Assembly: GCA_965116925.1 (NCBI GenBank)
Contig: OZ220744.1
Location: forward strand, 3,808,001 to 3,872,000
From: Candidatus Poribacteria bacterium
GTDB taxonomy: Bacteria > Poribacteria > WGA-4E > PCPOR2b
Length of the DNA: 64,000 nucleotides
Direction of reading: 5' to 3'
The notes beneath the pieces were generated by a model that saw only the letters and a list, made by a program, of their open reading frames with translations, was not told the origin of the DNA and ran no database searches. This document shows positions 1 to 13,882 of the stretch, one piece after another. How positions within the stretch are numbered: position 1 is the first letter of the stretch; the number at the start of each line of letters is the position of its first letter. The translations under genes were made by a program, and so were the position numbers.

Positions 1-1169
1 TTGTTTCAACAGTGCCTGTTATAGACGACACACTTTATCGCTGGGATACACGCACAGTCGCCGCCGGTTTATACACGATTGAGTTAGTGGCACGGGATAC
101 GCCGAATGGTGATTACGATAGGGAACATCTTGCCACTATATCAGTCACGGTTGAAGTTGATAGACATCGTCCAGAGGTCGAGATTCTTTCTCCCGCTGAG
201 AACGAGCAGGTGTCACAGAGAATTGAGATTCGTGGCACCGCAGATGACCGGAATTTCAAGGAATATACCATTGAATACGGACCCGGAGAGTCTCCTGATA
301 CTTGGTTACCCATATCCAAACCGCCGACGTTTTCAACCCCTGTGACCCGCGATATATTAGCGTTATGGGACGCGCCGAATTTATCGGGGCTGCACACATT
401 ACGGTTAGTTGTGGAAGATACAGCGGGACATAGAGAAGTTGATCAAGTGCGTATATTCTTCAATCCGAGTGTAGATCGTGAAACTGGCGGCACGGTGGAA
501 AGCCATGACAATCGGGCAAAAATCACCTTTCCGCCGAACAGCTTGCCACGGACAACTGTCATAACAGTCAACCCGGTGACAGAAAAATCGTTGCTCCCTG
601 TTTCCCCTATACCGTTTCAGGCTTACGATTTTGCACCTGAGGATCTGCGGTTACACCAGTTGAAACCGGCAACCCTCCAATTTTCCGTTGAAGATGCAGC
701 ACTACTTTCAAGCTCTAAAAGAAAAGAAACCTTGACAATCACCCGCTGGGATGGCAAAACATGGCTCCCTATTGGTGGGACAATTAATGTACAGCGCGGG
801 ACAATCTCAACGGTGGTTTCGACGCTTGGACGATATGCCATCACCACAAGACCCGCTGTAGAAACGGAGGAAAATACGATTATCTCCAATCTAACCTGCC
901 AACCGCGGGTGTTCTCGCCCAGCCGGGAATCAACGTGGATCTCATTTCGATTAAATCGTCCTGATGATATAACAATTAAAATCTATAATGAAGCCGGACG
1001 CTTGAGACGGTCACTAAGAGAATCGGAACCCTTGTCAGATGGGGGACATGTTTTCGAGTGGGACGGACGCGATGATGAGAATCGGCGGGTGGTCAGTAAT
1101 TTTTATTTCGTCACCGTTGAGGGCGAGGGAGCGCTGGGGACAAAAGTTGTTGTGGTACAGAATGATTAG
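1..1169 (+). CDS. Ig-like repeat surface protein with C-terminal FlgD/T9SS-CTD-like domain (5' end probably outside window)
   Basis: Ig-like segments (WDTRTVAAGLYTIELVARD, PEVEILSPAENEQV); C-terminus QPRVFSP...IKIYNEAGRL...WDGRD...YFVTV is typical of FlgD_ig/T9SS C-terminal domains; frame open to the window edge. Confidence 0.75.
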   Translation, partial: VSTVPVIDDTLYRWDTRTVAAGLYTIELVARDTPNGDYDREHLATISVTVEVDRHRPEVEILSPAENEQVSQRIEIRGTADDRNFKEYTIEYGPGESPDTWLPISKPPTFSTPVTRDILALWDAPNLSGLHTLRLVVEDTAGHREVDQVRIFFNPSVDRETGGTVESHDNRAKITFPPNSLPRTTVITVNPVTEKSLLPVSPIPFQAYDFAPEDLRLHQLKPATLQFSVEDAALLSSSKRKETLTITRWDGKTWLPIGGTINVQRGTISTVVSTLGRYAITTRPAVETEENTIISNLTCQPRVFSPSRESTWISFRLNRPDDITIKIYNEAGRLRRSLRESEPLSDGGHVFEWDGRDDENRRVVSNFYFVTVEGEGALGTKVVVVQND

Positions 1170-1387
1170 GGGATGAAGCGTGAAACGTGAGTGACGGGAT
1201 TCTGGAAGCTGAAGCAAATGGCTAAAACGGTTAGAAATATGGTAAAATTATGAAATCAAAGTTGCCGGCTGTCAAAATTTTTCTTGTCACAGTGTAAATT
1301 TCTCGCCAGCGGGCACGTGGGGAATTTCTATTGTCATAGATTTTAGAATTTGCGTCTCGTTACCTAATTAAAGAATTTTCAGTCTCA

Positions 1388-3544
1388 ATGATATGGATTA
1401 CCGAAAGAGTCTTGACAAAACTGAGTACACTTCGCATGATATTTGGAGTGTGCTGCTGTCTTTCAGTGTTATTCGTGCTATGCGCTACAGATGCGATATA
1501 TGGTGCTGAGGAGCAGGCGACAACAGGTGCCCGTGCTATCGGTATGGGAGGGGCATTCATCGGTGTTGCGGACGACGAAAACGCTGTGCGTCGGAATCCC
1601 GCCGGACTGCCCCGTTTGGACAGATATGCTGTAGGGTTTGAACAGACGCCGTCCGGGTTGTTTGATGCGCTGCAAACAAGCTATCTCAGCGCAGTCTTGC
1701 CGACATCCGAGAAGATGGCACTGGGCGTTGATTGGCTGCAGGTTGGTATTGAAGATGAAGAGTTGAACTCAAATCGCGACAGTTTCAACTTTGCTTATAG
1801 TTATGCCCCTTTGTCTCAACTGTCCCTTGGGGCAAATCTGAAATACTTTACGTGGTCAATCGCACTAGATGACAGATCGAGGGGAGCAGCAACGGGTTGG
1901 GGCACGGATGTTGGTCTTCTGTACCAGCCCCATCGCCGCTGGAAGTTGGGGGTACTTGCACAAAATTTCATCGGTTTTGGATCCGGGGAAGGATTGAGTT
2001 ACGGCACTTGGATAAGACACGATTCAGATGTCAGAGAAAAAGTTTTCCCGACTGCATACAAATTTGGTATTGCGTATCATCCTATTTCAAATTGGTTAAT
2101 CTCCGCAGACCTAACAGACCGGTTGCAGCTCGGCACAGAATTTTTGCCGAATCGAAATTTTGCCATCCGTGCAGGATTCCAGAAAGATTTGTATACGTCC
2201 GAGTCACCGACTTATTCGCTGGGTGGTAGTATAAGATATAGATGGATGGATTTTAACGTCGCGTATCTCATCCCTCCGACGTTGCCACCAACTACCTATG
2301 TTGGGCTTTCGCTCAACTTCGATTTTCGGAAGTTGCCGGTGCTCATTGAGGAGGTTCGCATAAGAGATCTCTATCCAGTGCTTCGTCGCTATTATGCTAC
2401 ATCGAATCGAGATCTAGAGAAGGAGACTTTGGATAGTGCCACGCCGCTGGTAATTACAGAGGCGGATCGAGAGTATTACTATCCACTTGAGGAAGCCAAT
2501 CAGATCGGCAGGATTTGGCTCAAAAACGAGAGCAATAAAGAGATAACCGTTCATATTAAACTCTTTATTCCTGAATTTGTCAGCAAAAACGGCACAGAAG
2601 TTGCGTCTGTTATTGAGATGCAGCCGTTAGAGCGGGCTTCGGTGCCAATACAACAACTGGTGTTAACACCAAAAGCACTGAAATTGTCGCAAAATCAGCC
2701 TGTTGAGGCACAGATTCAAGTGATTGAGAGCGGGGGCTCCGCCTACCGAACTTTTCCTGTAACATTTTTGTTACACGATAATCATTCAATCCAGTTGGAT
2801 GATGTTGCGAAACTTGCTTGTTTCATTTCCTCGGAAAGTTCGGTGGCAGATTCGGCGATTGGTGCATTCATCAATCAGGTGCGTACCGCATTTCAGACGG
2901 AGATTGATATCGCGGATATGCCGGAGAACCTGTATGTTGCCATGTTGTTGTTTAATGTTCTGCACGGCGTATCGTATGCGCGGGATCCAAATATACCGCG
3001 GCAGAGGGGGACAATTGATGAGATTAAGCATCCCCATGAAATGTTGGAAAGTCTTATGGGGCAGCACTCAGGAGATGACGATAAATCTACCTTTGGTGAC
3101 TGTGATGACAGCACAGTCCTCTACTGCTCTCTACTTGAATCGGTCGGCATCGAAACAGCACTCATTCAGCTACCAAATCATGTGTTAATGGCGTTTAATC
3201 TGGGCAATATTTCTGTTAAACAAGCGCAAGAAATAGGCTTACCCAGCGATTACTACGAGACAGTCAACGGGCAGGCTTGGATTCCGATTGAGACAACTCT
3301 TATCAACGACGGTTTTGCCGCTGCATGGCAGGAAGGGTGTCAATCACTCCAAGCGGTGAATATCCGGGCTGAAACTGTTGAGGATGCATGGGAAAAATAT
3401 GGTGAGAGTCCCTTTACGGGAGAACCGATCCAGCTTTCTATTCCAAAAGACCTCACCCAAAAACGGATTGATGCGGACCTCGCCACTCCATGGCTGATGG
3501 AATTTTTGAACGCACTCTCCAACGTTAGTACATTAGTAGATTAG
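1388..3544 (+). CDS. PorV/PorQ (FadL-like) outer-membrane barrel fused to a C-terminal transglutaminase-like domain
   Basis: Signal-peptide-like N-terminus (start may be ATG 1436); GARAIGMGGAFIGVADDENAVRRNPAGL barrel plug motif; alternating beta-strands; C-terminal GDCDD...HV...WIPIETT. Confidence 0.75.
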   Translation: MIWITERVLTKLSTLRMIFGVCCCLSVLFVLCATDAIYGAEEQATTGARAIGMGGAFIGVADDENAVRRNPAGLPRLDRYAVGFEQTPSGLFDALQTSYLSAVLPTSEKMALGVDWLQVGIEDEELNSNRDSFNFAYSYAPLSQLSLGANLKYFTWSIALDDRSRGAATGWGTDVGLLYQPHRRWKLGVLAQNFIGFGSGEGLSYGTWIRHDSDVREKVFPTAYKFGIAYHPISNWLISADLTDRLQLGTEFLPNRNFAIRAGFQKDLYTSESPTYSLGGSIRYRWMDFNVAYLIPPTLPPTTYVGLSLNFDFRKLPVLIEEVRIRDLYPVLRRYYATSNRDLEKETLDSATPLVITEADREYYYPLEEANQIGRIWLKNESNKEITVHIKLFIPEFVSKNGTEVASVIEMQPLERASVPIQQLVLTPKALKLSQNQPVEAQIQVIESGGSAYRTFPVTFLLHDNHSIQLDDVAKLACFISSESSVADSAIGAFINQVRTAFQTEIDIADMPENLYVAMLLFNVLHGVSYARDPNIPRQRGTIDEIKHPHEMLESLMGQHSGDDDKSTFGDCDDSTVLYCSLLESVGIETALIQLPNHVLMAFNLGNISVKQAQEIGLPSDYYETVNGQAWIPIETTLINDGFAAAWQEGCQSLQAVNIRAETVEDAWEKYGESPFTGEPIQLSIPKDLTQKRIDADLATPWLMEFLNALSNVSTLVD

Positions 3545-3602
3545 TAGATTCATTCATGAATGAACCAATGAACCGAAATAAGTTACACTAGGAGGAAAAC
3601 CG

Positions 3603-4481
3603 ATGATAGTCCACAAAACCTTAACCGTTACAATCTGTTTACTCTGTATGATGCTGGCATACACCTCGTATGCTGAATTGGAAGAGTCAACAGCAACATT
3701 TACATTTGGTGAGATAGAAGTTCTAAAAACCGGCGAACAGGAGTGGCGTTTTCTGGAGAAAGGCATGGTCCTCGCTGCAGACGATTTGGTGCGAATGCCA
3801 CCCTTCTCGCTGATGCGATTAAAAATAGAGGAGGACACCCGCTTACCGACCCTGTCAGGTGGACGTGAGGTCCTTGTTCGGACGTTAATCAATGAAGGCC
3901 TTCAGCGTAGGGAAGCCCAAAAAGGGAGGCGGATCAATGAAGATTTTGATGAAGATCCCGCAACGGATGTGCTGCCCGTTGGCAATAAGCGAAAAACACG
4001 GAATCGCGCTTCGGATTTTGAGGGATTGCCTGCGGTGAAGGTAAGTCAAAATGAGCTAGAAACCCTTCGTCGCAAAATCGATCTGCTTCCCGATGAGATT
4101 GCATTGTTGGTCTCTCCTGTCGTCGTTGGCTCTGTCCGAGAAAATGTGGAAGATCCCGCGTATCCTGCGCCCAACCTGGACTTGGCTCGAAAAATCTACG
4201 GTATATTCAACAAAATTGAGGTGGAGGTATCACGTCGTCCTTTGTTGTATGCTCAACTGCTTCACCATGCTGGTCTCAATGCTGATCTTGACATCAATGA
4301 AAAAGGGCAGCTGTTCGTGGTTTTTGACAGTGAGGTCCTCTCCGACAACGCCAAACAGATTGCCGTAAATCAGCAGTTAATCCATGAGAGGCAGGGGGAA
4401 GATACGGTCTGGATTGCTGTGCAGATTCAATCATCTCAACAGAATTTCACGACAGCATGGTATCAAGGAAGCCAGCAGTAG
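3603..4481 (+). CDS. Exported protein: FecR-like N-terminal domain plus degenerate transglutaminase-like C-terminal domain
   Basis: AGGAGG RBS; signal peptide; TFTFGEIEVLKTGEQEWRFLEKGMVLAADDLVR resembles a FecR domain start; C-terminus aligns with the C-terminus of the upstream protein. Confidence 0.55.
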   Translation: MIVHKTLTVTICLLCMMLAYTSYAELEESTATFTFGEIEVLKTGEQEWRFLEKGMVLAADDLVRMPPFSLMRLKIEEDTRLPTLSGGREVLVRTLINEGLQRREAQKGRRINEDFDEDPATDVLPVGNKRKTRNRASDFEGLPAVKVSQNELETLRRKIDLLPDEIALLVSPVVVGSVRENVEDPAYPAPNLDLARKIYGIFNKIEVEVSRRPLLYAQLLHHAGLNADLDINEKGQLFVVFDSEVLSDNAKQIAVNQQLIHERQGEDTVWIAVQIQSSQQNFTTAWYQGSQQ

Positions 4482-4549
4482 AGGGAAAACAGGGGGATGA
4501 GCCCGTGAGCAGATGAGGTGATTGCACATTTTATACCTCACCAGACTTT

Positions 4550-6484
4550 ATGCTCTCAAAACTAGCGCAATCTCAGAAAGTATATCTCCTGATCGGCATC
4601 GTGAGCCTGCTGCCGTTCATAGTGGTTGGGTTTCTACGTGATCTGGGTACTTTTGAGTTTATTGAACTGAAGACGCTAGATAGCCGACTACGGTGGACTG
4701 TGCCTCCTTCGCCCCCAGTTTCCTCTCAAATTGCGCTGATTACGATTGATGCCAAAAGTGAAAAGGAACTTGGACTAGCACCAGCATGGCGCTCCCACAT
4801 TTACGCTGCGCTGATTCACTCGCTCCAGCAAGCCGACCCGAAAGCAATTGGCTTAATTGTGTGGTTCAACAGCGAGTGGGAGGATGAACAACGGATTCCC
4901 GGTAAAAAGCTATTTGTTATCCGCCCCTACCCTAAGCCAAAGCCCACGGGGGCACTGCCAGAAGTCACCGATTGGCGCACCTTACCCGACAACTTAGCGC
5001 AAGCGCAGGGTTGGGGTTTTAGTTATTTCCCGTTGAGCGATTCGGATGGTATCGCTCGTTCCGCCCAGCTTGTCGTCAAAGACCTTGCCACAGGGACTTA
5101 TCGTTACTCCTTCGCAATGTCGATCCTGTGTCAAGCCTATGGTGTTTTTCCCACATCTATAAAATTGCAGGAGGAATTTTGGGTTGGAAAATATCTTGAA
5201 TTCGACTCGCCGACGGGAGAGGTAGTCCGTGTTCCTGTTGACTCACAGGGACGATTGTTCATTCGATTTGTCGACGATGAGAAGGTGTTTCAGCCTGTTT
5301 CTTTTATTGATGCTCTATCAATGGCGGAAAATGAAACGAACCAATTTTTGCGCGAATTTAGCAATAAGTGCATATTGATTGGCATCACAACAGAAGGTGT
5401 CAATAAAAGGGCGACCCCAGTGGGCGAACTGTCAGCACTCGCTCTGCGGACAAATCTGCTCAACGGTCTGTTAAATCAAGATTTCGTTTGGCAACTCAGT
5501 CGAGGCGGCAATCGGCTCTATATTGTTTGTCTTGCGGTGCTTTCTGTCGCGGTAACAATGTTAATTTACCGAAGCGGACATAGCTACCGATCTATGCTAC
5601 TCTTCGGCAGCGGTCTGATACTATGTCATCTGCTTTTTGTCGGCGGGATGTTCGTTCTCTTTGACCTTTGGGTTGAAGTCACTGGATCAACCCTAGCATT
5701 GCTTCTTAGTAGTGGAATCAGTAGCTTACTCCTAGCGCATCTTCGGCTGCGGTATTTGCTTAGTCAGTTGCAAACGACGCAAGATCAGTTGGTCAGATCA
5801 GAAAAAGAGGCTGTGTTTGGTGTGATGTCGGCGCGTGTTCGGCATGAGTTGCGAAATGCGCTGAACCTAATCCGCGCTCCGGCGGAAATGATCCGGGTTA
5901 ATTTTCAAAAGCAAGACCCTCTCAAGCTGCGAGAACAACCCGCAGAGATTGTTAGTGAAATGGATCAGATTATTGGGTGGGTAACAAAGCTGGATGAAAT
6001 GATCGAAGATGAATTCAGCTTTTTCCAAGATTCCCACATGAATTTCGAGCGACAAGCAGTTGAACCCATCCTGAAGTCCGCGGTGGAGATGGTACAACCG
6101 GTGATTGATGAGAATCAGATCGAAGTTCGGATGAATCTGCCGCCGATAATTCCGCCACGGCGCCTCGATGATGATAAGATGCGGATTGTCTTTACAAACC
6201 TAATTAAAAATGCTTGTCAAGCGATGCCATCGGGAGGGACATTGGAAATTGTCGTAGAGGTGTCAATACTTCAGCAGGACAGAGTTACTGTCATCGTCAA
6301 GGACACAGGAGTGGGCATCCCTGCGGAGGAACTCTATCGAATTTTTGAACCTTTTTATACAACTAAACCACGTGGATTGGGCCTTGGTCTGGTGAATGTA
6401 AAGAACATCGTCGAAGCGCATGGCGGCACAGTACGGGTGGAGAGCGAAGTTGGTATAGGAACGACGTTTTTCGTTCGGTTGTAA
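4550..6484 (+). CDS. CHASE2-domain sensor histidine kinase
   Basis: N-terminal [23 protein letters not shown] and [13 protein letters not shown]2 motifs, 3 TMs, H-box RHELRNAL, N-box NLIKNA, G-boxes [20 protein letters not shown]. Confidence 0.9.
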
Positions 6485-6533
6485 CCGATCTCTACCGTTT
6501 TCTCAGGCAATTACGCATTAACGGATACAAATC

Positions 6534-8009
6534 ATGAAACACGCACGAATTTTAATTGCAGACGACGAACAGGCGACCTGTAAATACATTGATGCACAAC
6601 TCAAGATGGAGACATCAATTGATGCCTCCGTTGATTTTGCTTATAATCGGGATGCGGCTATTGCACAGTTAGACGAAAATCCGTCTTATGACTTGATTCT
6701 GGTCGATCTCTGGATGCCGGACGCACAGGGAATTTTGGATAGAGAAGCAGGGCTAAAAGTTCTTAAGCAGAGCAAGAAACAACACCCGATACCGCAAGCC
6801 ATAGTTATTACTGCTAACAGTTCTTCGGAAACTGCACTTGAGGCAAGTGGATTGGGGATTTACGACTATGTCAGCAAGCCGATTAACTACACCCACCTAA
6901 TCGAAGTTGTCAAGGAGGTGTTGAGCCAGCGCGATCACGAGCCTCCTGCTCAAGATGACAATATAGGTTTTGCCGATGATTATGCCGATGATTATGAAAT
7001 TATTGGCAAGAGTCCTGCCATGATTGAAGTGATGACAACTGTCGGGCGAGTTGCGCGATCAGAAACAGATGTCTTACTCTATGGCGAAAGCGGCACTGGC
7101 AAGGATTTTGTCGCACGCGCCATCCATAAGCATAGCCCACGTTCTGGGGGTCCCTTTGAGGTTGTTAATTGCAGCGCAATTCCAGCAGAGTTAATTGAGG
7201 CAGAACTATTCGGCATCGGGAGACGGGTGGCGACATCGGTTGACCAACGTCCGGGCAAATTTCAGCAGGCACACGGTGGGACTATTTTTCTTGATGAGAT
7301 TGGCGATCTAAGTCTGGAGATGCAGCCGAAATTACTGCGTGTGTTGGATTATAAAGAGATTCAGGGCGTTGGGGTGAAAGTGCAGCGGGTTGATGTTCGG
7401 ATTATCGCTGCAACCAATCGTGACCTTGGGGCGGCGGTGCAAGCAGGAAAGTTTCGGAGTGATCTCTACTATCGTTTGAAGCCGATAATTGCTTTACCGC
7501 CATTGCGCGAGCGCGAAGGAGATATTGAATTGTTGGCGTGGCATTTTCTCCACAAATATTCTCACCTCCTCGAACAGAAGCGTACCTTTGGTTTTGACGA
7601 TGTGGTGCTCGCGGCATTTGAGCAGTATCATTGGCCGGGAAACGTGCGGGAATTGGAGAAAGCGATCGAATATGCAATCCTCACCTGCACGGGTCCACAG
7701 ATTTCCATACGCGATTTGGTGCCGGAAATCTTTGAGAACAGCGCTGAATCTACTCCTGAATTCCTTGATCAAGGAAGGGGTGAAAGGGACGAGAATGCAG
7801 ATGTGGGGGATGTAGGTTTTCGTAGCCTACTTGATGCTGCAACAATTAAGGAGGCTTCACAAGGATTTGAGCGAATTTTCTTGGAGCACAAACTCAAGCA
7901 AAATCACTGGAACATTCAAGCAACGGCGGAACAGATTGGTATTCGGCGGCAGTCGTTGCATCGTAAGATTAATGAATTGGGGTTGCAGCGAGATTTGAGT
8001 CGGACTTAA
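6534..8009 (+). CDS. NtrC-family sigma54-dependent response regulator (REC-AAA+-Fis HTH)
   Basis: REC (ADDE, DLWMP), Walker A GESGTGKD, Walker B FLDEIGD, WPGNVREL, C-terminal HTH; GAFTGA position reads RVATSV. Confidence 0.93.
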   Translation: MKHARILIADDEQATCKYIDAQLKMETSIDASVDFAYNRDAAIAQLDENPSYDLILVDLWMPDAQGILDREAGLKVLKQSKKQHPIPQAIVITANSSSETALEASGLGIYDYVSKPINYTHLIEVVKEVLSQRDHEPPAQDDNIGFADDYADDYEIIGKSPAMIEVMTTVGRVARSETDVLLYGESGTGKDFVARAIHKHSPRSGGPFEVVNCSAIPAELIEAELFGIGRRVATSVDQRPGKFQQAHGGTIFLDEIGDLSLEMQPKLLRVLDYKEIQGVGVKVQRVDVRIIAATNRDLGAAVQAGKFRSDLYYRLKPIIALPPLREREGDIELLAWHFLHKYSHLLEQKRTFGFDDVVLAAFEQYHWPGNVRELEKAIEYAILTCTGPQISIRDLVPEIFENSAESTPEFLDQGRGERDENADVGDVGFRSLLDAATIKEASQGFERIFLEHKLKQNHWNIQATAEQIGIRRQSLHRKINELGLQRDLSRT

Positions 8010-8019
8010 TGGGAATTTG

Positions 8020-8059
8020 TGTCGCTTTTGTGTTACATCGTCACATTCAGGTGACGATG
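8020..8059. promoter_or_regulatory. Tandem palindromic sites, candidate enhancer (UAS) for the NtrC-type activator
   Basis: TGTCGC-N6-GTTACA (8020-8037) next to perfect inverted repeat CATCGTCAC-N6-GTGACGATG (8036-8059), about 190-230 bp upstream of the predicted sigma54 start. Confidence 0.55.
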
Positions 8060-8222
8060 GCGCGAGGCATAAACCAGCTTGGAATTGCCAATCAAAATAC
8101 GATAATAAAAAAGTAGCGCACTTCAGTTGATAGCCGTCAATCTTGTCACCTTCCGCTTTCACGGTTAGCTTATTGCTGATTTCTCTTTTCTATTTTCTCC
8201 CAATTTCCATCTTGTCGCAATG

Positions 8223-8237
8223 TGGCACATATATTGC
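8223..8237 (+). promoter_or_regulatory. sigma54 (-24/-12) promoter
   Basis: TGGCAC-ATATA-TTGC matches TGGCAC-N5-TTGC exactly, directly downstream of a bEBP gene. Confidence 0.8.
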
Positions 8238-8294
8238 CTATAGTTAATGAGGCAGTTTACAGGCAAGCTAAAGACTCAAGTGTTGGGGGAAAGA

Positions 8295-9482
8295 ATGGTG
8301 CTGCAGACAAATGAAGTTATACCGCTAAAAGGTCCTACTAAAACGCCCGTTGACGATTTAACAATCCCGAAGCTGCGTTTTGTACCCACCGATGCACAAA
8401 TACAAGAGTCACCAGAAGAATTTCCAATTGACGCAGCCAATGATAACGCCAAAGCGTTTGAAACCCGTTATTCAGATCAAGAGGACGGTTTATTAAGGAC
8501 CTACCTTCACCAGATTGGTAAAATCCCACGTTTAACTCAAGAGGAAGAAACCAACCTGTTCATCAAGATTGAAAAGCGTCGGTTGCAATCTGATGAGCTC
8601 TATCAGGAGTTGGTCGCCTACCTGCCTGACCTTTCTCTGGACAACCAGCCATCTACTGCTATCCTGAACCGCAGAATTATAGCTGAATCCCTCCCACAGT
8701 CCACCGAAGAGTATCTTTTGGATTTGGTGCAACACATAAAGTTATACAATGCAGAGGCTGAGACTGCTAAGAACCACATTGTTGAAGCGAATTTAAGACT
8801 AGCAGTCTGCATCGCGAAAAAATATCGGGAGCGTGGACTTGATTTACTCGATCTGGTTCAAGAGGCGAGCATCGGACTTCTCCAGGCGGTTGATCACTTT
8901 GATTGGCAGCGTGGTGTCAAATTTGGAGCGTACGCTTCGTGGTGGATGCAGCAGGCAATTGGCTGTGGTATTGCTAATCATGGGCGGATGATTCGTCTGC
9001 CGGCGTATATCCTCGGTGAGATTCGGAAGGTGAATCGGGTGGAAGCACGCCTGCATCAGCAGACCAATCGCGAACCGAGCCGAAAAGAGGTCGCTGAGGC
9101 ATCGGGGCTCACTGTGGATCGGCTTCTGCTACTGGACCGACTAACCACTAATACCGTATCGCTGGAGACTTATAATAATTCGGGACAAGGTGGAATTGAG
9201 GATTTTGTCGCGTGTGAAAAGACCCCGAATCCGCTAGAGGAACTCACTCGGCAAAATTTGGTGGCGGAAGTGAAAGCAGCCTTGACCGAGCTACCGCCGC
9301 GCGAACAGCAAATCATTTCCCTAAGATATGGATTGGAAAATGGAAAGGAACACAGTTTACAGGAGATTGGTGCGTTCCTGAATCTCTCCAGAGAGCGGAT
9401 TCGACAGCTTGAGATGAGAGCCTTAAATCGACTACGTCACCCTGCTCGTTGCGAGCACTTCCGAGATTTTGAAGACGTCTAG
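8295..9482 (+). CDS. RpoD/RpoS-like sigma-70 factor (non-primary, group 2-like)
   Basis: Region 1.2 YLHQIGKIPRLTQEEE, 2.1 IVEANLRL, 2.2 DLVQEASIGL, 4.2 SRERIRQLE; start put at ATG 8295 (GGGGGA RBS) because ATG 8247 lies at the predicted sigma54 TSS. Confidence 0.9.
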   Translation: MVLQTNEVIPLKGPTKTPVDDLTIPKLRFVPTDAQIQESPEEFPIDAANDNAKAFETRYSDQEDGLLRTYLHQIGKIPRLTQEEETNLFIKIEKRRLQSDELYQELVAYLPDLSLDNQPSTAILNRRIIAESLPQSTEEYLLDLVQHIKLYNAEAETAKNHIVEANLRLAVCIAKKYRERGLDLLDLVQEASIGLLQAVDHFDWQRGVKFGAYASWWMQQAIGCGIANHGRMIRLPAYILGEIRKVNRVEARLHQQTNREPSRKEVAEASGLTVDRLLLLDRLTTNTVSLETYNNSGQGGIEDFVACEKTPNPLEELTRQNLVAEVKAALTELPPREQQIISLRYGLENGKEHSLQEIGAFLNLSRERIRQLEMRALNRLRHPARCEHFRDFEDV

Positions 9483-9483
9483 C

Positions 9484-9885
9484 CTAGGAGGAAGGCGGTG
9501 ACCTCGTTCCTTCTCGTTGTGAATCCGGTGATTCTTCAGGATTGAACATGTAGTCGAAGCTCAACCACAAGCTGCGAGAATAGCGGAAGAAGAAGATGGG
9601 GAAAAGGGCGCAGAAGGCTACCCACAGAATGAAGTTTGCAAGAAAAGAGATAGAAGTGAAATAACCCAACGCAAAATAGCCAGCAAATGCAATAAGAACA
9701 GTCATACCGTAGTTAATATACATTGCCCCGACAAAGTATCCTGCCTCGCGTTCAAATCCGAAGCTACAGCTACCGCACTCCGAACGCATTTTGAACATAC
9801 CTGTAAACATTCGACCTTCACCACATCTCGGACACCTTAAGCGCAGTCCTTTTACGAAGATTTGTCCCTTGCTCTGTTTCTGCAT
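9484..9885 (-). CDS. DUF983-family membrane protein
   Basis: RCPRCGEGRMF...CGSC zinc ribbon, EREAGYFVGAMYINY, two TMs. Confidence 0.85.
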   Translation of the reverse strand: MQKQSKGQIFVKGLRLRCPRCGEGRMFTGMFKMRSECGSCSFGFEREAGYFVGAMYINYGMTVLIAFAGYFALGYFTSISFLANFILWVAFCALFPIFFFRYSRSLWLSFDYMFNPEESPDSQREGTRSPPSS

Positions 9886-9947
9886 CTACTGCTTTCCCTC
9901 CTTGAACTCCCACCTTCAATAAGTTATAATTTCCGATTGAGAACCTA

Positions 9948-9976
9948 ATTTTAGCATAGCTGGTCGGTGATGTCAA
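9948..9976 (-). promoter_or_regulatory. sigma70 promoter for the DUF983 gene
   Basis: TTGACA-17-TAAAAT with extended -10 TG on the minus strand. Confidence 0.65.
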
Positions 9977-10146
9977 TTTAGTCTTGCAAGCAGAAGTCGA
10001 TCGCCTCCCACTCTTTGATGTTGGCACCAATAATGGCAATCTATCATGAACGTTGCCGTAAGGGCGAGGCTCACTTGCCCTATTGGCGTGCTCAACATTT
10101 TTCAAACCGATTCATCGGTGAATCGTGGAGCTAGCGGAGCACAATT

Positions 10147-10959
10147 ATGGATTATCGCATAGAAGCGAACCGAAAGAACTGGAACGAGCGCACCCCTGCT
10201 CATGCAGCCTCTGAATTTTACGATGTGGCGGGATTTCGCAATGGTCGGATAACGCTGACCGATATAGAAAGAACGGAGGTGGGTTCTGTCGAAGGCAAGT
10301 CTCTGCTGCACCTTCAGTGTCACTTTGGTATGGATACGATGTCATGGGCTCGATTGGGAGCGGAAGCGACGGGGGTTGACATCTCAGACGCCGCAATCGA
10401 TTTGGCGAAAGCATTGAATGATGAGCTGCAATTGAATACCCGATTTATCTGTTCCAATATCTACGACCTACCCGATGTACTGGATGAAGAGTTCGACATC
10501 GTATATACGGCGATGGGGGTGCTTTGTTGGTTGCCAGATTTGTCTGGATGGGCAAATATCATCGCTAGATTTCTCAAACCCAACGGTATTTTCTACATCT
10601 TGGATGGTCACCCATTCGCACACGTATTTGAATCGGAAGAGAACCTAGATGGAGTTCAGGAACTACGGGTGCGATATCCGTACTTCAAAAAAAAGGAGGG
10701 CGACTTCTACGAGGGTGGCCAGCCCAGTTATGCAAGTTCAGAAGTCATAGAAGCTGGATGTTACGAATGGCAGCACAGCGTTGGTGAGATACTGAATGCC
10801 ATCTTGGATGCTGGATTACGGATTCAGTTCTTTCACGAGTTTGCACGCAGTGGCTATAAAGCCTTTCCATGTATGGAAAAAGGTAAGGATGGCTGGTGGC
10901 GGCTTACATCGCACAACGACTCAGTCCCACAACTATTCTCGCTGAAGGCGACTAAATAA
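10147..10959 (+). CDS. Class I SAM-dependent methyltransferase
   Basis: GKSLLHLQCHFGMDT motif I variant, GVDIS, FDIVY. Confidence 0.9.
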   Translation: MDYRIEANRKNWNERTPAHAASEFYDVAGFRNGRITLTDIERTEVGSVEGKSLLHLQCHFGMDTMSWARLGAEATGVDISDAAIDLAKALNDELQLNTRFICSNIYDLPDVLDEEFDIVYTAMGVLCWLPDLSGWANIIARFLKPNGIFYILDGHPFAHVFESEENLDGVQELRVRYPYFKKKEGDFYEGGQPSYASSEVIEAGCYEWQHSVGEILNAILDAGLRIQFFHEFARSGYKAFPCMEKGKDGWWRLTSHNDSVPQLFSLKATK

Positions 10960-11038
10960 GCCTGAATAGCCTCAGTTCATACGACTGAGTTAAAAGTCTA
11001 TCGGTTGCACGACTTGAGTTGTCCTTGATTGCATTATT

Positions 11039-13882
11039 ATGAAAATCCAAAACGGCATTGCAATTGTCTGTTTCTTCCTCTCTGGTTTCGCGGGGCTAGT
11101 CTACGAGGTGTCGTGGATACGGAAGGCTTCTCTGGCCTTTGGATCCACGACGTTTGCTGTTAGCACAGTATTAGCGGTCTTTTTTCTCGGACTGGCTTGT
11201 GGCAGCTATCTGTTTGGACGAATTGGCCAAAACACGGTGCGACCATTAAGGCTTTACGCGCTGATCGAAATCGGACTTGGACTGTTCGCTATGGCAAGTC
11301 CTTACCTCCTTGACTTCACGGAGAGCCTCTACGGCCCAATCTATCGCGCTCTAGCGGGTCATGCCGTTATTCTATTCATAGCACGCGGGGTGCTGGTGTC
11401 TCTCGTCATCCTCCCACCTACTATCCTCATGGGCAGCACACTTCCCCTCTTTTGCCGCCAATTCGTTCACAGCGATGCAAGGGTCGCCAATCGTGTTGGA
11501 ATGCTTTACGGGGTGAACACCTTGGGCGCAGCGGTGGGCTGTGCAGCAGCTGGGCTCTTCTTGCTGCCAACACTCGGACTTCGGCTCACTGTTCAGTTGG
11601 GGGCCGCCTTGAACCTCCTGTGCGGCATTGCTGTCTGGCTATTACCCGTCGCCAAAAATCAGCTTCCTCAATTGAATCAGGATTCAGAGGAGCCTGCAAG
11701 TCAGGGCAAAATAGCTACGGAACGGTTTACCGCCGCGCAGCTCCCCATTGCCATTCTGTTCTTTTCCGTTGGCTTTGTCGTCCTTGGGAGTGAGGTGCTT
11801 TGGACACGCTACTTGCGACTTTTGACCCGTCAGAATAGCGTATACACCTACACCTTAACACTGACAGTGATACTAGTCGGTATTGTCCTCGGTAGTTTTC
11901 TCGCTTCCCGTCTCTTCGATCGGTCAACACCGCGCGCACGATATTTTGGTCTATTTCAAATTCTTACAGGGCTATCGGTGCTAACTGTTATGACCCTTCC
12001 ACATACTTTTTGGGCAGGTGTCAAAAATGAGTTGGGGATGTATTTCCTTCTACTATTGCCGCCCGCGATCCTTTCGGGCGCGTCATTTCCGCTTGCGGTG
12101 CGGATGGTTGTCGAAGGTGCATCAGGGGCAAGTATAGGGACGGGGCGGATGGCAGCAATTAACACGCTGGGTGGAATTCTCGGCTCGCTGCTGATTGGAT
12201 TTGTGGGGCTGCCCATCTTTGGGATAAAGTTCAGCCTCCTGTTTATTACAGGCGTCAGTTTATTAACCGGATTCGCTGCATGGTTCTGGATTGACAAAAC
12301 CTTCTCACCGCTTTTGCGAGGAGGAGCAGTGGCCGGAGCATTACTGATCTGGGTCTGTGTCCCTTTTGCTTCAGGGACTCAGATACCCGCCGATTTTCTT
12401 GCGAGTGGACGGCAACTGGTGGCTTTCCGTGAGGGATTTGATGGAGATTTGGCTGTTATCCGAAGAGATGAGAAGTGGATTGAACTTGAAATTGACCGAT
12501 GGTGGCAGGGAAGCAATCTAAAAAATCAGCAGGTAGTTGGGGCGCATATTCCAGCCCTCTTGCACCCGAATCCAAAAAACGTTTTGGTTGTTGGAGCAGG
12601 GACCGGACAAACGCCAAGCCGTTTTCTGATATACGATATTGACCGTCTCGATTGTGTCGATATCGAACCGACGCTGTTTGAGTTTATCCGTGACCATTTC
12701 GACTCGAAGTGGATGGCAGACGAACGGGTCAAGCTGATTAGTGAGGACGGGCTCAATTACCTGAATCACAGTGATGTTATGTATGATATAATTGCCATTG
12801 AGGTGGGCCAAATCTTTCGCCCCGGTATTGCGTTTTTCTACACTGCTGATTTCTACCACCGTTCCCGGCAACGACTTCGGCCCGGTGGTCTCCTCACCCA
12901 ACTGGTTTCAATACCGTCGCTCACAACCGATCAGTTCCGGGGTGTGATTAAAACCTTCCTTGACGCTTTTCCGCAGAGTTTTCTGTGGTACAACTCCTCC
13001 GATTTGCTCCTGATTGGTGTGAACGATACAGATTTCAAGATCAGCCCCACCACCTTAGAACAGTTATCGTCTAATGAATCCGTGCGCCGCGACTTGCGCT
13101 ACACCTTTTGGGGCGGACCTAAACAGTGGCTTAACTGGATTCCTGTCTTTCTCGGAGGATATCTGGCAGGGCCGCATGAACTCGCTCAACTGGCATCGGG
13201 GGCTCGCCTTTACCGTGATGATTTGCCGGTGCTCGATTACGCAACCAGTTTGAGCTACATCACCGAGACGAATGAGATTCCAATTGTCAAAGATTACCTG
13301 CTCAAGCATACCGGTTCCCTAGACGAGGTCATTGATTTCACACTTTCTGCCGAAAAGATTTCAGATATTGAAGAGCTCCGCAAGAAAAATCTAGGGGCAA
13401 TCATCGCAGAAGCCCTTCTCCGGCGGGCAGAGCTGCTGACACTTTCAAGAGACGATGCAGCCGACGAGGTTATTACGTTACTTTCAGAGGCGGTCGACTG
13501 GAATCCGGACCATTTTGAGGCGAATCGTATGCTCGCCGACGCGCTGATAGGGCAGGGGCGGAACAAAGCGGCGGGGCGCTATTATGTGGAGGCTAACCGA
13601 ATTCGCCCGGAAGATCCCCATGTCCTACACGGCATTGCCCACACACTCTATCGTCTCAATAGAATTGAGGCAGCAATCCCATACTATCGGGCTTCGTTGC
13701 GCCTACGACCCAACCACGCCGAGACGCACAATCACATTGGGCTCGCCTTGGCTAAACGAGGAAATTTCGTCGAGGCACGCCAGCACTTCAAGACAGCGGT
13801 CCGCTTGGATCCTGACTACACTGAAGCCAAGCGAAATCTTGCTGGGGTGAGGAAAGCTCTACAGGCGATGCCGCAAAGGTGA
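11039..13882 (+). CDS. Fused MFS-like/spermidine synthase-like membrane protein with C-terminal TPRs
   Basis: FFLSGFAGLVYEVSW, YGVNTLGAAVG, about 13 TMs, VLVVGAGTG/EDGLNYL SAM-fold, TPR repeats at the C-terminus. Confidence 0.88.
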   Translation: MKIQNGIAIVCFFLSGFAGLVYEVSWIRKASLAFGSTTFAVSTVLAVFFLGLACGSYLFGRIGQNTVRPLRLYALIEIGLGLFAMASPYLLDFTESLYGPIYRALAGHAVILFIARGVLVSLVILPPTILMGSTLPLFCRQFVHSDARVANRVGMLYGVNTLGAAVGCAAAGLFLLPTLGLRLTVQLGAALNLLCGIAVWLLPVAKNQLPQLNQDSEEPASQGKIATERFTAAQLPIAILFFSVGFVVLGSEVLWTRYLRLLTRQNSVYTYTLTLTVILVGIVLGSFLASRLFDRSTPRARYFGLFQILTGLSVLTVMTLPHTFWAGVKNELGMYFLLLLPPAILSGASFPLAVRMVVEGASGASIGTGRMAAINTLGGILGSLLIGFVGLPIFGIKFSLLFITGVSLLTGFAAWFWIDKTFSPLLRGGAVAGALLIWVCVPFASGTQIPADFLASGRQLVAFREGFDGDLAVIRRDEKWIELEIDRWWQGSNLKNQQVVGAHIPALLHPNPKNVLVVGAGTGQTPSRFLIYDIDRLDCVDIEPTLFEFIRDHFDSKWMADERVKLISEDGLNYLNHSDVMYDIIAIEVGQIFRPGIAFFYTADFYHRSRQRLRPGGLLTQLVSIPSLTTDQFRGVIKTFLDAFPQSFLWYNSSDLLLIGVNDTDFKISPTTLEQLSSNESVRRDLRYTFWGGPKQWLNWIPVFLGGYLAGPHELAQLASGARLYRDDLPVLDYATSLSYITETNEIPIVKDYLLKHTGSLDEVIDFTLSAEKISDIEELRKKNLGAIIAEALLRRAELLTLSRDDAADEVITLLSEAVDWNPDHFEANRMLADALIGQGRNKAAGRYYVEANRIRPEDPHVLHGIAHTLYRLNRIEAAIPYYRASLRLRPNHAETHNHIGLALAKRGNFVEARQHFKTAVRLDPDYTEAKRNLAGVRKALQAMPQR

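Follow-up and report, generated by a model that had tools for sequence, protein, structure and literature searches.

A six-gene cluster of Poribacteria joins a proposed FecR/CHASE2-type envelope signalling variant to a predicted sigma54-to-sigma70 cascade

We analyzed the first 9,482 nt of a 64,000-nt stretch of a Candidatus Poribacteria genome (positions 3808001-3872000, hereafter the window; the source genome is one contig of 6.47 Mb), which hold a cluster of six genes, g1 to g6. As the initial annotation had read them, the six open reading frames (ORFs) share one orientation (3-1169, 1388-3544, 3603-4481, 4550-6484, 6534-8009 and 8247-9482, all on the plus strand). We read the cluster as FecR/CHASE2 envelope signalling in a variant form, coupled to a sigma54-to-sigma70 cascade. 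Its output tier is very probable, judged from sequence: the CHASE2 sensor kinase g4 would act through the enhancer-binding protein g5 on an enhancer and a sigma54 promoter preceding the sigma70-family gene g6. For the input tier, a relay from g1, g2 and g3 to g4 that we read from context, the chances appear about evenly divided, and the whole, a two-tier signalling unit from the surface to a sigma factor, has a similarly balanced standing.

The cascade can be read from the region between g5 and g6. Here, a tandem palindromic enhancer (TGTCAC-N6-GTGACA twice, one base apart; 8020-8056) and a sigma54 -24/-12 promoter on the plus strand (TGGCAC-N5-TTGC; 8223-8237) precede g6, and both elements, which the initial annotation had pointed out, are conserved. 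The palindrome was found in 44 of 47 loci against an expectation of 6.5 (200 shuffles, maximum 15); a consensus with a 5-base spacer fitted poorly, and the 6-base spacer was used instead. All 47 loci have a -24/-12 element in the g5-g6 interval; the pattern used was loose, with a ~5% chance of occurring per 900 bases, and the loci are kin. The site is weak in one genome (G069), and in another (G070) the automatic pick was wrong, though a good site is present. In one locus (L031, G018), the element is tandemly duplicated, 24 bases apart. The strict pattern TGGCAC-N5-TTGC occurs in 87 copies in the 6.47-Mb genome, 48 of them intergenic, and many of these 48 precede proteins with apparent signal peptides. 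An enhancer matrix built without this genome scored 39.9 at 8020-8056 and 10.8 at the next best site; because no other site in the genome exceeds the latter value, g6 is the sole predicted target of g5. By its GG-N10-GC core, its upstream enhancer and the presence of RpoN in the genome, the element before g6 is a predicted sigma54 promoter, and no comparable promoter lies upstream of the three other RpoD-like sigma genes of the genome.

The gene behind this promoter was correctly recognised at the outset as an alternative sigma70. Its ORF opens at 8247, and a start at 8295 is more likely, because the ATG at 8247 coincides with where transcription is expected to begin and 8295 is preceded by a GGGGGA; the predicted protein (8295-9482, plus strand) then has 395 amino acids (aa). 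It carries regions 1.2, 2, 3 and 4, lacks region 1.1, is not found in the 112 genomes of family f2, as expected of a dispensable factor, and is distinct from a separate 591-aa RpoD-like paralogue in the genome, which together place it, on sequence grounds, in group 2 of the sigma70 family. The RERIRQ motif of region 4.2 is retained. Region 2.4 differs from that of RpoD, so that the preference for the -10 element has likely changed. A scan of this genome returned no g6 promoter motif or regulon.

The enhancer-binding protein g5 (6534-8009) combines REC, sigma54 AAA+ and HTH_8 (Fis HTH) domains, with an invariant Asp58 and conserved Walker motifs and arginines. It had been called an NtrC-type activator; the domains agree with this, and the GAFTGA loop does not, as loop 1 reads RVATSV (nt 7224-7241). 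All 37 g5 orthologues have an xVATxV loop with a conserved Thr, as do the g5 proteins of main loci from other orders, and among the 16 activators of this genome whose loop was read, g5 alone carries it. An activator with a GVATGV loop in Desulfovibrio is predicted to act at sigma54 promoters, according to the sections available to us of PMC4641369. The genome contains two RpoN genes, the second of which is divergent (5245788-5247128; L029:619-1959) and encodes 446 aa with the RpoN box ARRTVTYYR and an atypical N-terminus. A search of 61 genomes returned this second gene in 34, with no genome of families f2 or f4 among them. The negatives include all of seven f4 genomes as well as G022, G023, G026-G028 and G030, and the majority of these genomes have the cluster. 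That the xVATxV activator works with the second RpoN was rejected, as the two do not co-occur. The gene upstream, g4 (4550-6484), encodes a CHASE2 sensor histidine kinase, as had been proposed, with CHASE2, HisKA and HATPase domains, three hydrophobic segments over threshold and a His432 that is conserved in 38 of 38 orthologues. It is the only CHASE2 gene of the genome.

To place the cluster in its phylum, we surveyed 176 genomes, 112 of them from family f2, with thresholds for g5 and g6 chosen to exclude paralogues, and fetched the loci around g2 orthologues (37 in families f1, f3 and f4, plus three further loci, the decaying copy of G031 and two paralogues that lack g3-g6). Gene order, which the initial annotation had wanted checked in relatives, is conserved: g2-g3-g4-g5-g6 follow one another in 36 of the 37 loci of f1, f3 and f4, and the 37th reaches a contig end. 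Other orders contributed 11 g3 loci, of which five have g1 to g6 in order (G065, G069 with a frameshifted g5, G070, G071 and G072); of the remaining six, two run from g2 or g3 through g6, two meet contig ends, one has no g6 and one is a sigma-less paralogous cluster. Adjacency of g2 to g5 is kept across orders at low identity, the genes overlapping in places. The carriers are nearly equal in number for the enzyme part of g2 (55), g3 (56), CHASE2 (57), g5 (56) and g6 (54), and each of the five is found in none of the 112 f2 genomes. RpoN is present in 105 of these 112, and all 10 of the other carriers that were tested have it as well; in 18 of the 112, short proteins match the g1 tail weakly. 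G014 (88% complete) has g1 and not the rest of the cluster.

In a decaying copy (L067, G031:C72), g3 to g5 are deleted and g2 is cut to 207 aa, and the enhancer and promoter are kept before g6; a distant g1 homologue in the same genome (G031:C156:64277-65062) carries stops. In G076, the sigma gene is relocated, with one enhancer-like palindrome and a degenerate -24/-12 element upstream of it, as seen by eye. Footprinting, co-loss and co-relocation thus make the predicted cascade from g5 to g6 well supported, and gene order, joint absence from f2 and the domain fusions described below support the six genes as one functional unit; in both respects, the earlier interpretation stands. Assembled RNA contigs from four studies match the region, and one X1 contig covers g2 to g6 plus unrelated downstream genes; such contigs do not allow strand, start or level to be read.

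The envelope part of the cluster includes g2 (1388-3544), which consists of a barrel (residues ~40-315), an Ig-like domain (316-463) and a transglutaminase-fold domain, the PorV-like barrel-transglutaminase fusion that had been suspected. It scores above the NCBIfam PorV_fam cut-off (NF033709; 91.5 bits against 90) and below the threshold of the PorV equivalog NF033710 (32.5 bits against 250 for the full length). An AlphaFold2 model built from 64 sequences, with a mean predicted local distance difference test (pLDDT) value of 84.8, resolves into three parts: a barrel of 14 strands, a domain of Ig-like type and an alpha/beta domain. In fold searches, which are dominated by the barrel, PorV (6h3i_F) matched with Z 28.4 and a root-mean-square deviation of 2.7 over 262 aligned residues, and FadL homologues matched about equally (Z 29.7 and 27.7); the g2 profile matched 6h3i_F with E 2e-7. 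The putative triad is formed by Cys572 (nt 3101), His598 (nt 3179) and Glu635 (nt 3290), with Cys572 at the start of a helix and His598 at the start of a strand in the model. Across an alignment of 64 rows, Cys572 and its D-C-D motif are present in all, and His598 and Glu635 in 63 each. PF01841 matched five of the 64 members (best E 6e-4) and 51% of an Atlas neighbour cluster; the window protein itself has no Pfam match at all, and Peptidase_C93 matched none of the 64. By family match and Cys-His-acid triad, the domain belongs to the transglutaminase-like superfamily and is predicted to be active. Since the number of barrel strands is even, the Ig-like and enzyme domains would lie on the periplasmic side. 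A sigma70-type promoter of g2 (TTGACA-17-CATGAT; 1412-1440, plus strand) was present in 17 of the 26 loci in which an anchor was found (21 of the 47 loci were not anchored), with TTGACA-17/18-CATAAT as its conserved form. The in-frame GTG at 1448 lies 7 nt 3' of it, and a start at +7 recurs in 16 of the 17 promoter-bearing loci, which suggests that the g2 mRNA is leaderless.

The following gene, g3 (3603-4481), encodes a signal peptide, half a FecR domain (residues ~28-102), a linker with a conserved D122-x-L124-P125 and a catalytically dead transglutaminase-fold domain. The C-terminal part is homologous to the enzyme domain of g2 (hhalign E 1e-7), the g2 profile recovers g3 among all ORFs of the genome (E 1e-5), and distant g3 members match PF01841. 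The catalytic motif [DG]C[DE]D is found in none of 82 g3 rows, and the column of the catalytic His holds mostly E, K or D; with this fold homology and the loss of both Cys and His, g3 is by sequence a pseudo-transglutaminase. The initial annotation had described a FecR-like protein with a dead transglutaminase domain: the dead domain is confirmed, and the FecR part does not extend beyond half a domain. Over ~75 residues, this part aligns with the first portion of a protein that has a FecR domain (E 2e-8), a partly circular value as that protein was found via the g3 profile; half-FecR/TPR proteins from distant enzyme loci also align to the g3 N-terminus (E 1.5e-6). A single-sequence fold of g3 (pLDDT 34.8) gave no usable model, and when g2 residues 315-718 and g3 residues 25-292 were predicted as a complex, the score was 0.00 in both runs, which speaks neither for nor against an interface. 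A match of the g3 profile to PorN/GldN structures (E 2e-4 to 2e-3) was reciprocated neither with PF19841 in the genome nor with TIGR/NF models in the 82 members and is probably spurious. No longer g3 fusions were found in a set of 5.8 billion sequences, in a search that is weak by the tool's own note.

At the other end of the predicted input tier, g1 proved larger than the Ig/FlgD-tailed surface protein of the initial annotation. The ORF in the window (3-1169) holds the Ig domains and a non-generic FlgD_ig/C-terminal domain (CTD)-like tail, and is the tail alone of a 1231-aa secreted protein whose gene begins at genome position 3805474, ~2.5 kb upstream of the window, and which also contains Reg_prop beta-propellers (188 bits in a domain search). 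Reg_prop propellers are periplasmic sensor domains of hybrid two-component systems. In f1 and f3, g1 stands immediately before g2, occasionally with insertions. Directly upstream of g1 lies a gene for an 800-aa WD40 protein with a generic CTD-like tail (3802923-3805325; L002:2923-5325), conserved at this place in f1, f3 and two f8 genomes, which may be a seventh member of the cluster. One f4 genome (G040) encodes about ten proteins with a g1-type C-terminal region over several contigs, some of them broken.

[quoted passage not shown] They include a SprA-like frame of 2187 aa (E 1e-17) and two PorU-like proteins of ~2090 aa, all under curated cut-offs. The genome further yields 77 FlgD_ig matches and ~15 PorV-family barrels. 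Of 76 CTD-like tails examined, 57 are of one generic type, and the g1 tail is not among them; six of the 15 barrels adjoin a gene with a non-generic CTD-like tail. Type B CTD cargo in Bacteroidota pairs with a cognate PorP/SprF, as stated in the accessible sections of PMC9143113 and PMC12618676, and the adjacency seen here resembles this cargo-shuttle pairing.

Domain fusions connect the same parts in other combinations. Reg_prop-Y_Y_Y propellers are fused to a whole g3 module in two mutually related proteins (P0281 and P0318) and Reg_prop propellers to the active enzyme domain and TPR repeats in three (P0294, P0287 and P0308); a smaller barrel is fused to the same Ig-enzyme-TPR arrangement in P0286. 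Barrel and enzyme also occur as neighbouring separate genes (L086, L087 and L089), and in L180 a propeller-enzyme gene is followed directly by a CHASE2 kinase. The distant relatives of the enzyme were sampled as 79 metagenome loci, many of them on short contigs, drawn from the best 80 of 469 matches and biased to relatives of the first sequence. Eight of these 79 loci contain half-FecR/TPR genes. At L085 and L089 (G064 and G065), enzyme-TPR genes are followed by a caspase-like/FGE-sulfatase protein.

We propose the following mechanism, in which physical contacts, periplasmic location, chemistry, ligand and direction of control are what we infer. g1 would leave the cell through the T9SS-like machinery and stay anchored at the surface on g2, the PorV-type barrel dedicated to it; there, the Reg_prop propellers of g1 may bind a ligand. 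Occupancy of the barrel could then alter the state of the fused periplasmic Cys-His-Glu domain, which would act on g3, binding it through the dead homologous domain and most likely cleaving or transamidating it. The half-FecR segment of g3 might in turn switch the CHASE2 domain of g4. The kinase would phosphorylate g5, which is predicted to bind the tandem enhancer and open the sigma54 promoter of g6, and g6 would redirect RNA polymerase to its regulon. That these steps represent a class of trans-envelope signalling, from cargo on a PorV-type barrel via a periplasmic enzyme and a pseudo-enzyme adaptor to a CHASE2 kinase, is a tentative reading that we hold to be rather doubtful.

The particular relay from surface protein through enzyme and pseudo-enzyme to kinase, as first proposed, stays a hypothesis, and several observations weigh against an integrated pathway. 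g1 does not adjoin g2 in any of the six f4 main loci, its homologues being elsewhere and expanded in this family; and since g2 has its own conserved promoter, with g1 upstream of it, g2 to g5 can be predicted to be transcribed without g1. Pfam FecR (PF04773) is matched by none of 61 g3 members, in keeping with half a domain. Of the GldKLMN motor and ring, the search covered GldM and GldN; neither turned up in the genome, in searches that ran without a working positive control. The absence from f2 may reflect a single loss, these genomes being kin. G073 and G074 retain g5, enhancer, promoter and g6, with the enzyme part of g2 and g3 undetected and a kinase elsewhere, and a paralogous g1-g5 cluster in G068 (L077, G068:C670) has no sigma gene and a GAFSGA activator; its g2 contains, by eye, an insertion resembling the half-FecR segment. 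In Borrelia, the kinase adjacent to a comparable activator is dispensable, according to the sections seen of PMC2940757. Among the distant enzyme relatives, a CHASE2 gene occurs in one of the 79 loci, and 57 of 77 have a close downstream gene; because 39 of these 57 are lipoprotein-like by the lipobox pattern, the distant family points to a link with surface display. In L150-L228, barrel-Ig-transglutaminase-TPR genes are tightly trailed, and often overlapped, by genes for variable Ig-rich lipoproteins, possibly a system for display or processing of surface lipoproteins.

These lipoprotein-linked relatives raise the possibility, somewhat improbable in our view, that g2 is mainly a cognate display or processing factor, its barrel taking up g1 and its cysteine enzyme cleaving, cross-linking or releasing surface cargo in the manner of LapG, a protease of the periplasm whose target is a surface adhesin (PMC3032545, as far as available), and that g3 and g4 monitor secretion or envelope status rather than a g1-bound ligand. 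The pairing of barrel genes with CTD cargo in this genome fits such a role, as do paralogous g1-like/g2-like pairs without g3-g6 (L068 and L069; the g2 tree that served solely to call these and the second copy in G068 paralogues was made by a quick method, is unfinished and has long branches). However, f2 has lost the enzyme part of g2 together with g3-g6 and yet keeps 8-12 barrel matches per genome (14 f2 genomes), sensing is suggested by the propeller-enzyme fusions that lack a barrel, of which one lies beside a CHASE2 kinase, and a periplasmic enzyme would reach surface cargo in transit alone. It is unlikely that kinase-activator-sigma and envelope g1-g3 are two loosely connected modules, clustered and co-regulated without mutual signalling. 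The lone g5-g6 of G073/G074, the moved g6 of G076, the sigma-less paralogue of G068 and the separability of g1 speak for this, but g2 to g5 stay adjacent and partly overlapping across orders, the distributions of g3 and CHASE2 are nearly identical, and FecR-domain genes adjoin CHASE2 sensors in unrelated phyla, going by the available sections of PMC5192318 and PMC9239204. We consider it very unlikely that g5 is no working sigma54 activator, being instead a repressor or a sigma70-type regulator with another activator at the promoter, or that the second RpoN is required. Its unusual loop and the two RpoN genes would agree with this; the conserved Thr, Walker motifs and arginines, the Desulfovibrio precedent, the cohesion of enhancer, promoter and g5 even in reduced loci and the failure to find the second RpoN in the genomes named above, mostly cluster carriers, do not.

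Compared with known systems, the cascade with its predicted envelope input combines familiar elements in another arrangement. LapG has a transglutaminase-like fold. In the LapG/LapD/LapA system, too, a periplasmic cysteine enzyme is linked with a protein of the surface and with a signalling protein of the inner membrane, but LapG is soluble and under inside-out control by cyclic di-GMP, whereas the g2 enzyme is barrel-fused, without a Peptidase_C93 match and with a predicted outside-in flow. As for type B CTD cargo of the T9SS with PorP/SprF shuttles, a cargo gene adjoins a dedicated barrel here, and the barrel has the fold of PorV; unlike in the type B pairs, it is of the PorV family, enzyme-fused and from a phylum outside Bacteroidota, with GldM/GldN undetected. 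In Sinorhizobium meliloti, the outer-membrane barrel receptor NsrA feeds the CHASE2 cyclases CyaD1/CyaD2/CyaK and then Clr (PMC13001267 and PMC7529298, in the sections at hand), and a FecR-domain protein is among the Clr targets (PMC5498481, likewise). The likeness lies in an outer-membrane barrel upstream of an inner-membrane CHASE2 sensor; the output there is cyclic AMP/Clr rather than a histidine kinase and a sigma cascade, and in the present cluster the barrel is of PorV type and carries a transglutaminase-fold enzyme as a fusion, accompanied by a pseudo-enzyme partner and CTD cargo. In the BiofilmReg operon of Burkholderia (response regulator, LysM-FecR and CHASE2 kinase) and in the FecR/TPR/CHASE2 cyclase clusters known from Campylobacterota, a periplasmic gene of FecR type likewise stands directly ahead of the one for a CHASE2 sensor (PMC5192318 and PMC9239204). 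They differ in having a complete FecR domain together with either a CreB-type regulator or a cyclase, and the accessible parts of these papers describe no barrel-enzyme fusion, enhancer-binding protein or sigma gene there. For the output, Rrp2-RpoN-RpoS of Borrelia (PMC2940757) and HrpRS-sigma54-HrpL of Pseudomonas syringae (PMC3105312) are described, in the portions available, as activators driving the sigma54 promoter of a sigma70-family gene. In the present cluster, in contrast, the sigma gene immediately follows that of its activator and has a tandem enhancer to itself, the activator loop reads xVATxV, and an envelope module is attached. The cluster is also not FecIRA-type cell-surface signalling, which combines a TonB-dependent transducer with an extracytoplasmic function sigma/anti-sigma pair (PMC9239204, in part): its barrel is of the 14-strand FadL/PorV type, and the g6 sigma factor has regions 1.2 and 3. 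A literature search, with most subscription journals outside its scope, found no published description of the cluster or the barrel-enzyme fusion, and the accessible sections of PMC5498481, PMC8195603 and PMC4439547 do not describe the layout.

Behind g6 (window 9484-13882) lie a DUF983 gene on the minus strand, a gene for an S-adenosylmethionine (SAM) methyltransferase and a membrane/spermidine-synthase/TPR fusion, of which the DUF983 and SAM methyltransferase genes are kept at this place solely within the genus of the window. Upstream of the window (3789563-3802836), the genome encodes four secreted proteins (742-778 aa) that resemble one another and whose N-termini are related; the two fully printed ones terminate in TYWWNP.

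What CHASE2 domains sense is stated as an open question in the part of PMC5192318 available to us, and the cluster offers candidate protein partners for such a domain in a fixed order. Its readout is built in as well: a single promoter, with an enhancer unique in the genome, that could be rebuilt in a laboratory strain. If the proposed input holds true, PorV-family barrels would extend from shuttles to signal transducers, and a bacterial enzyme/pseudo-enzyme pair would be gained; because propeller-enzyme, propeller-pseudo-enzyme and barrel-enzyme fusions make the parts modular, such a pair might be a general, previously undescribed input device for CHASE2 sensors. For the Poribacteria themselves, the cluster would represent a regulatory switch that one large family, f2, apparently lacks entirely.

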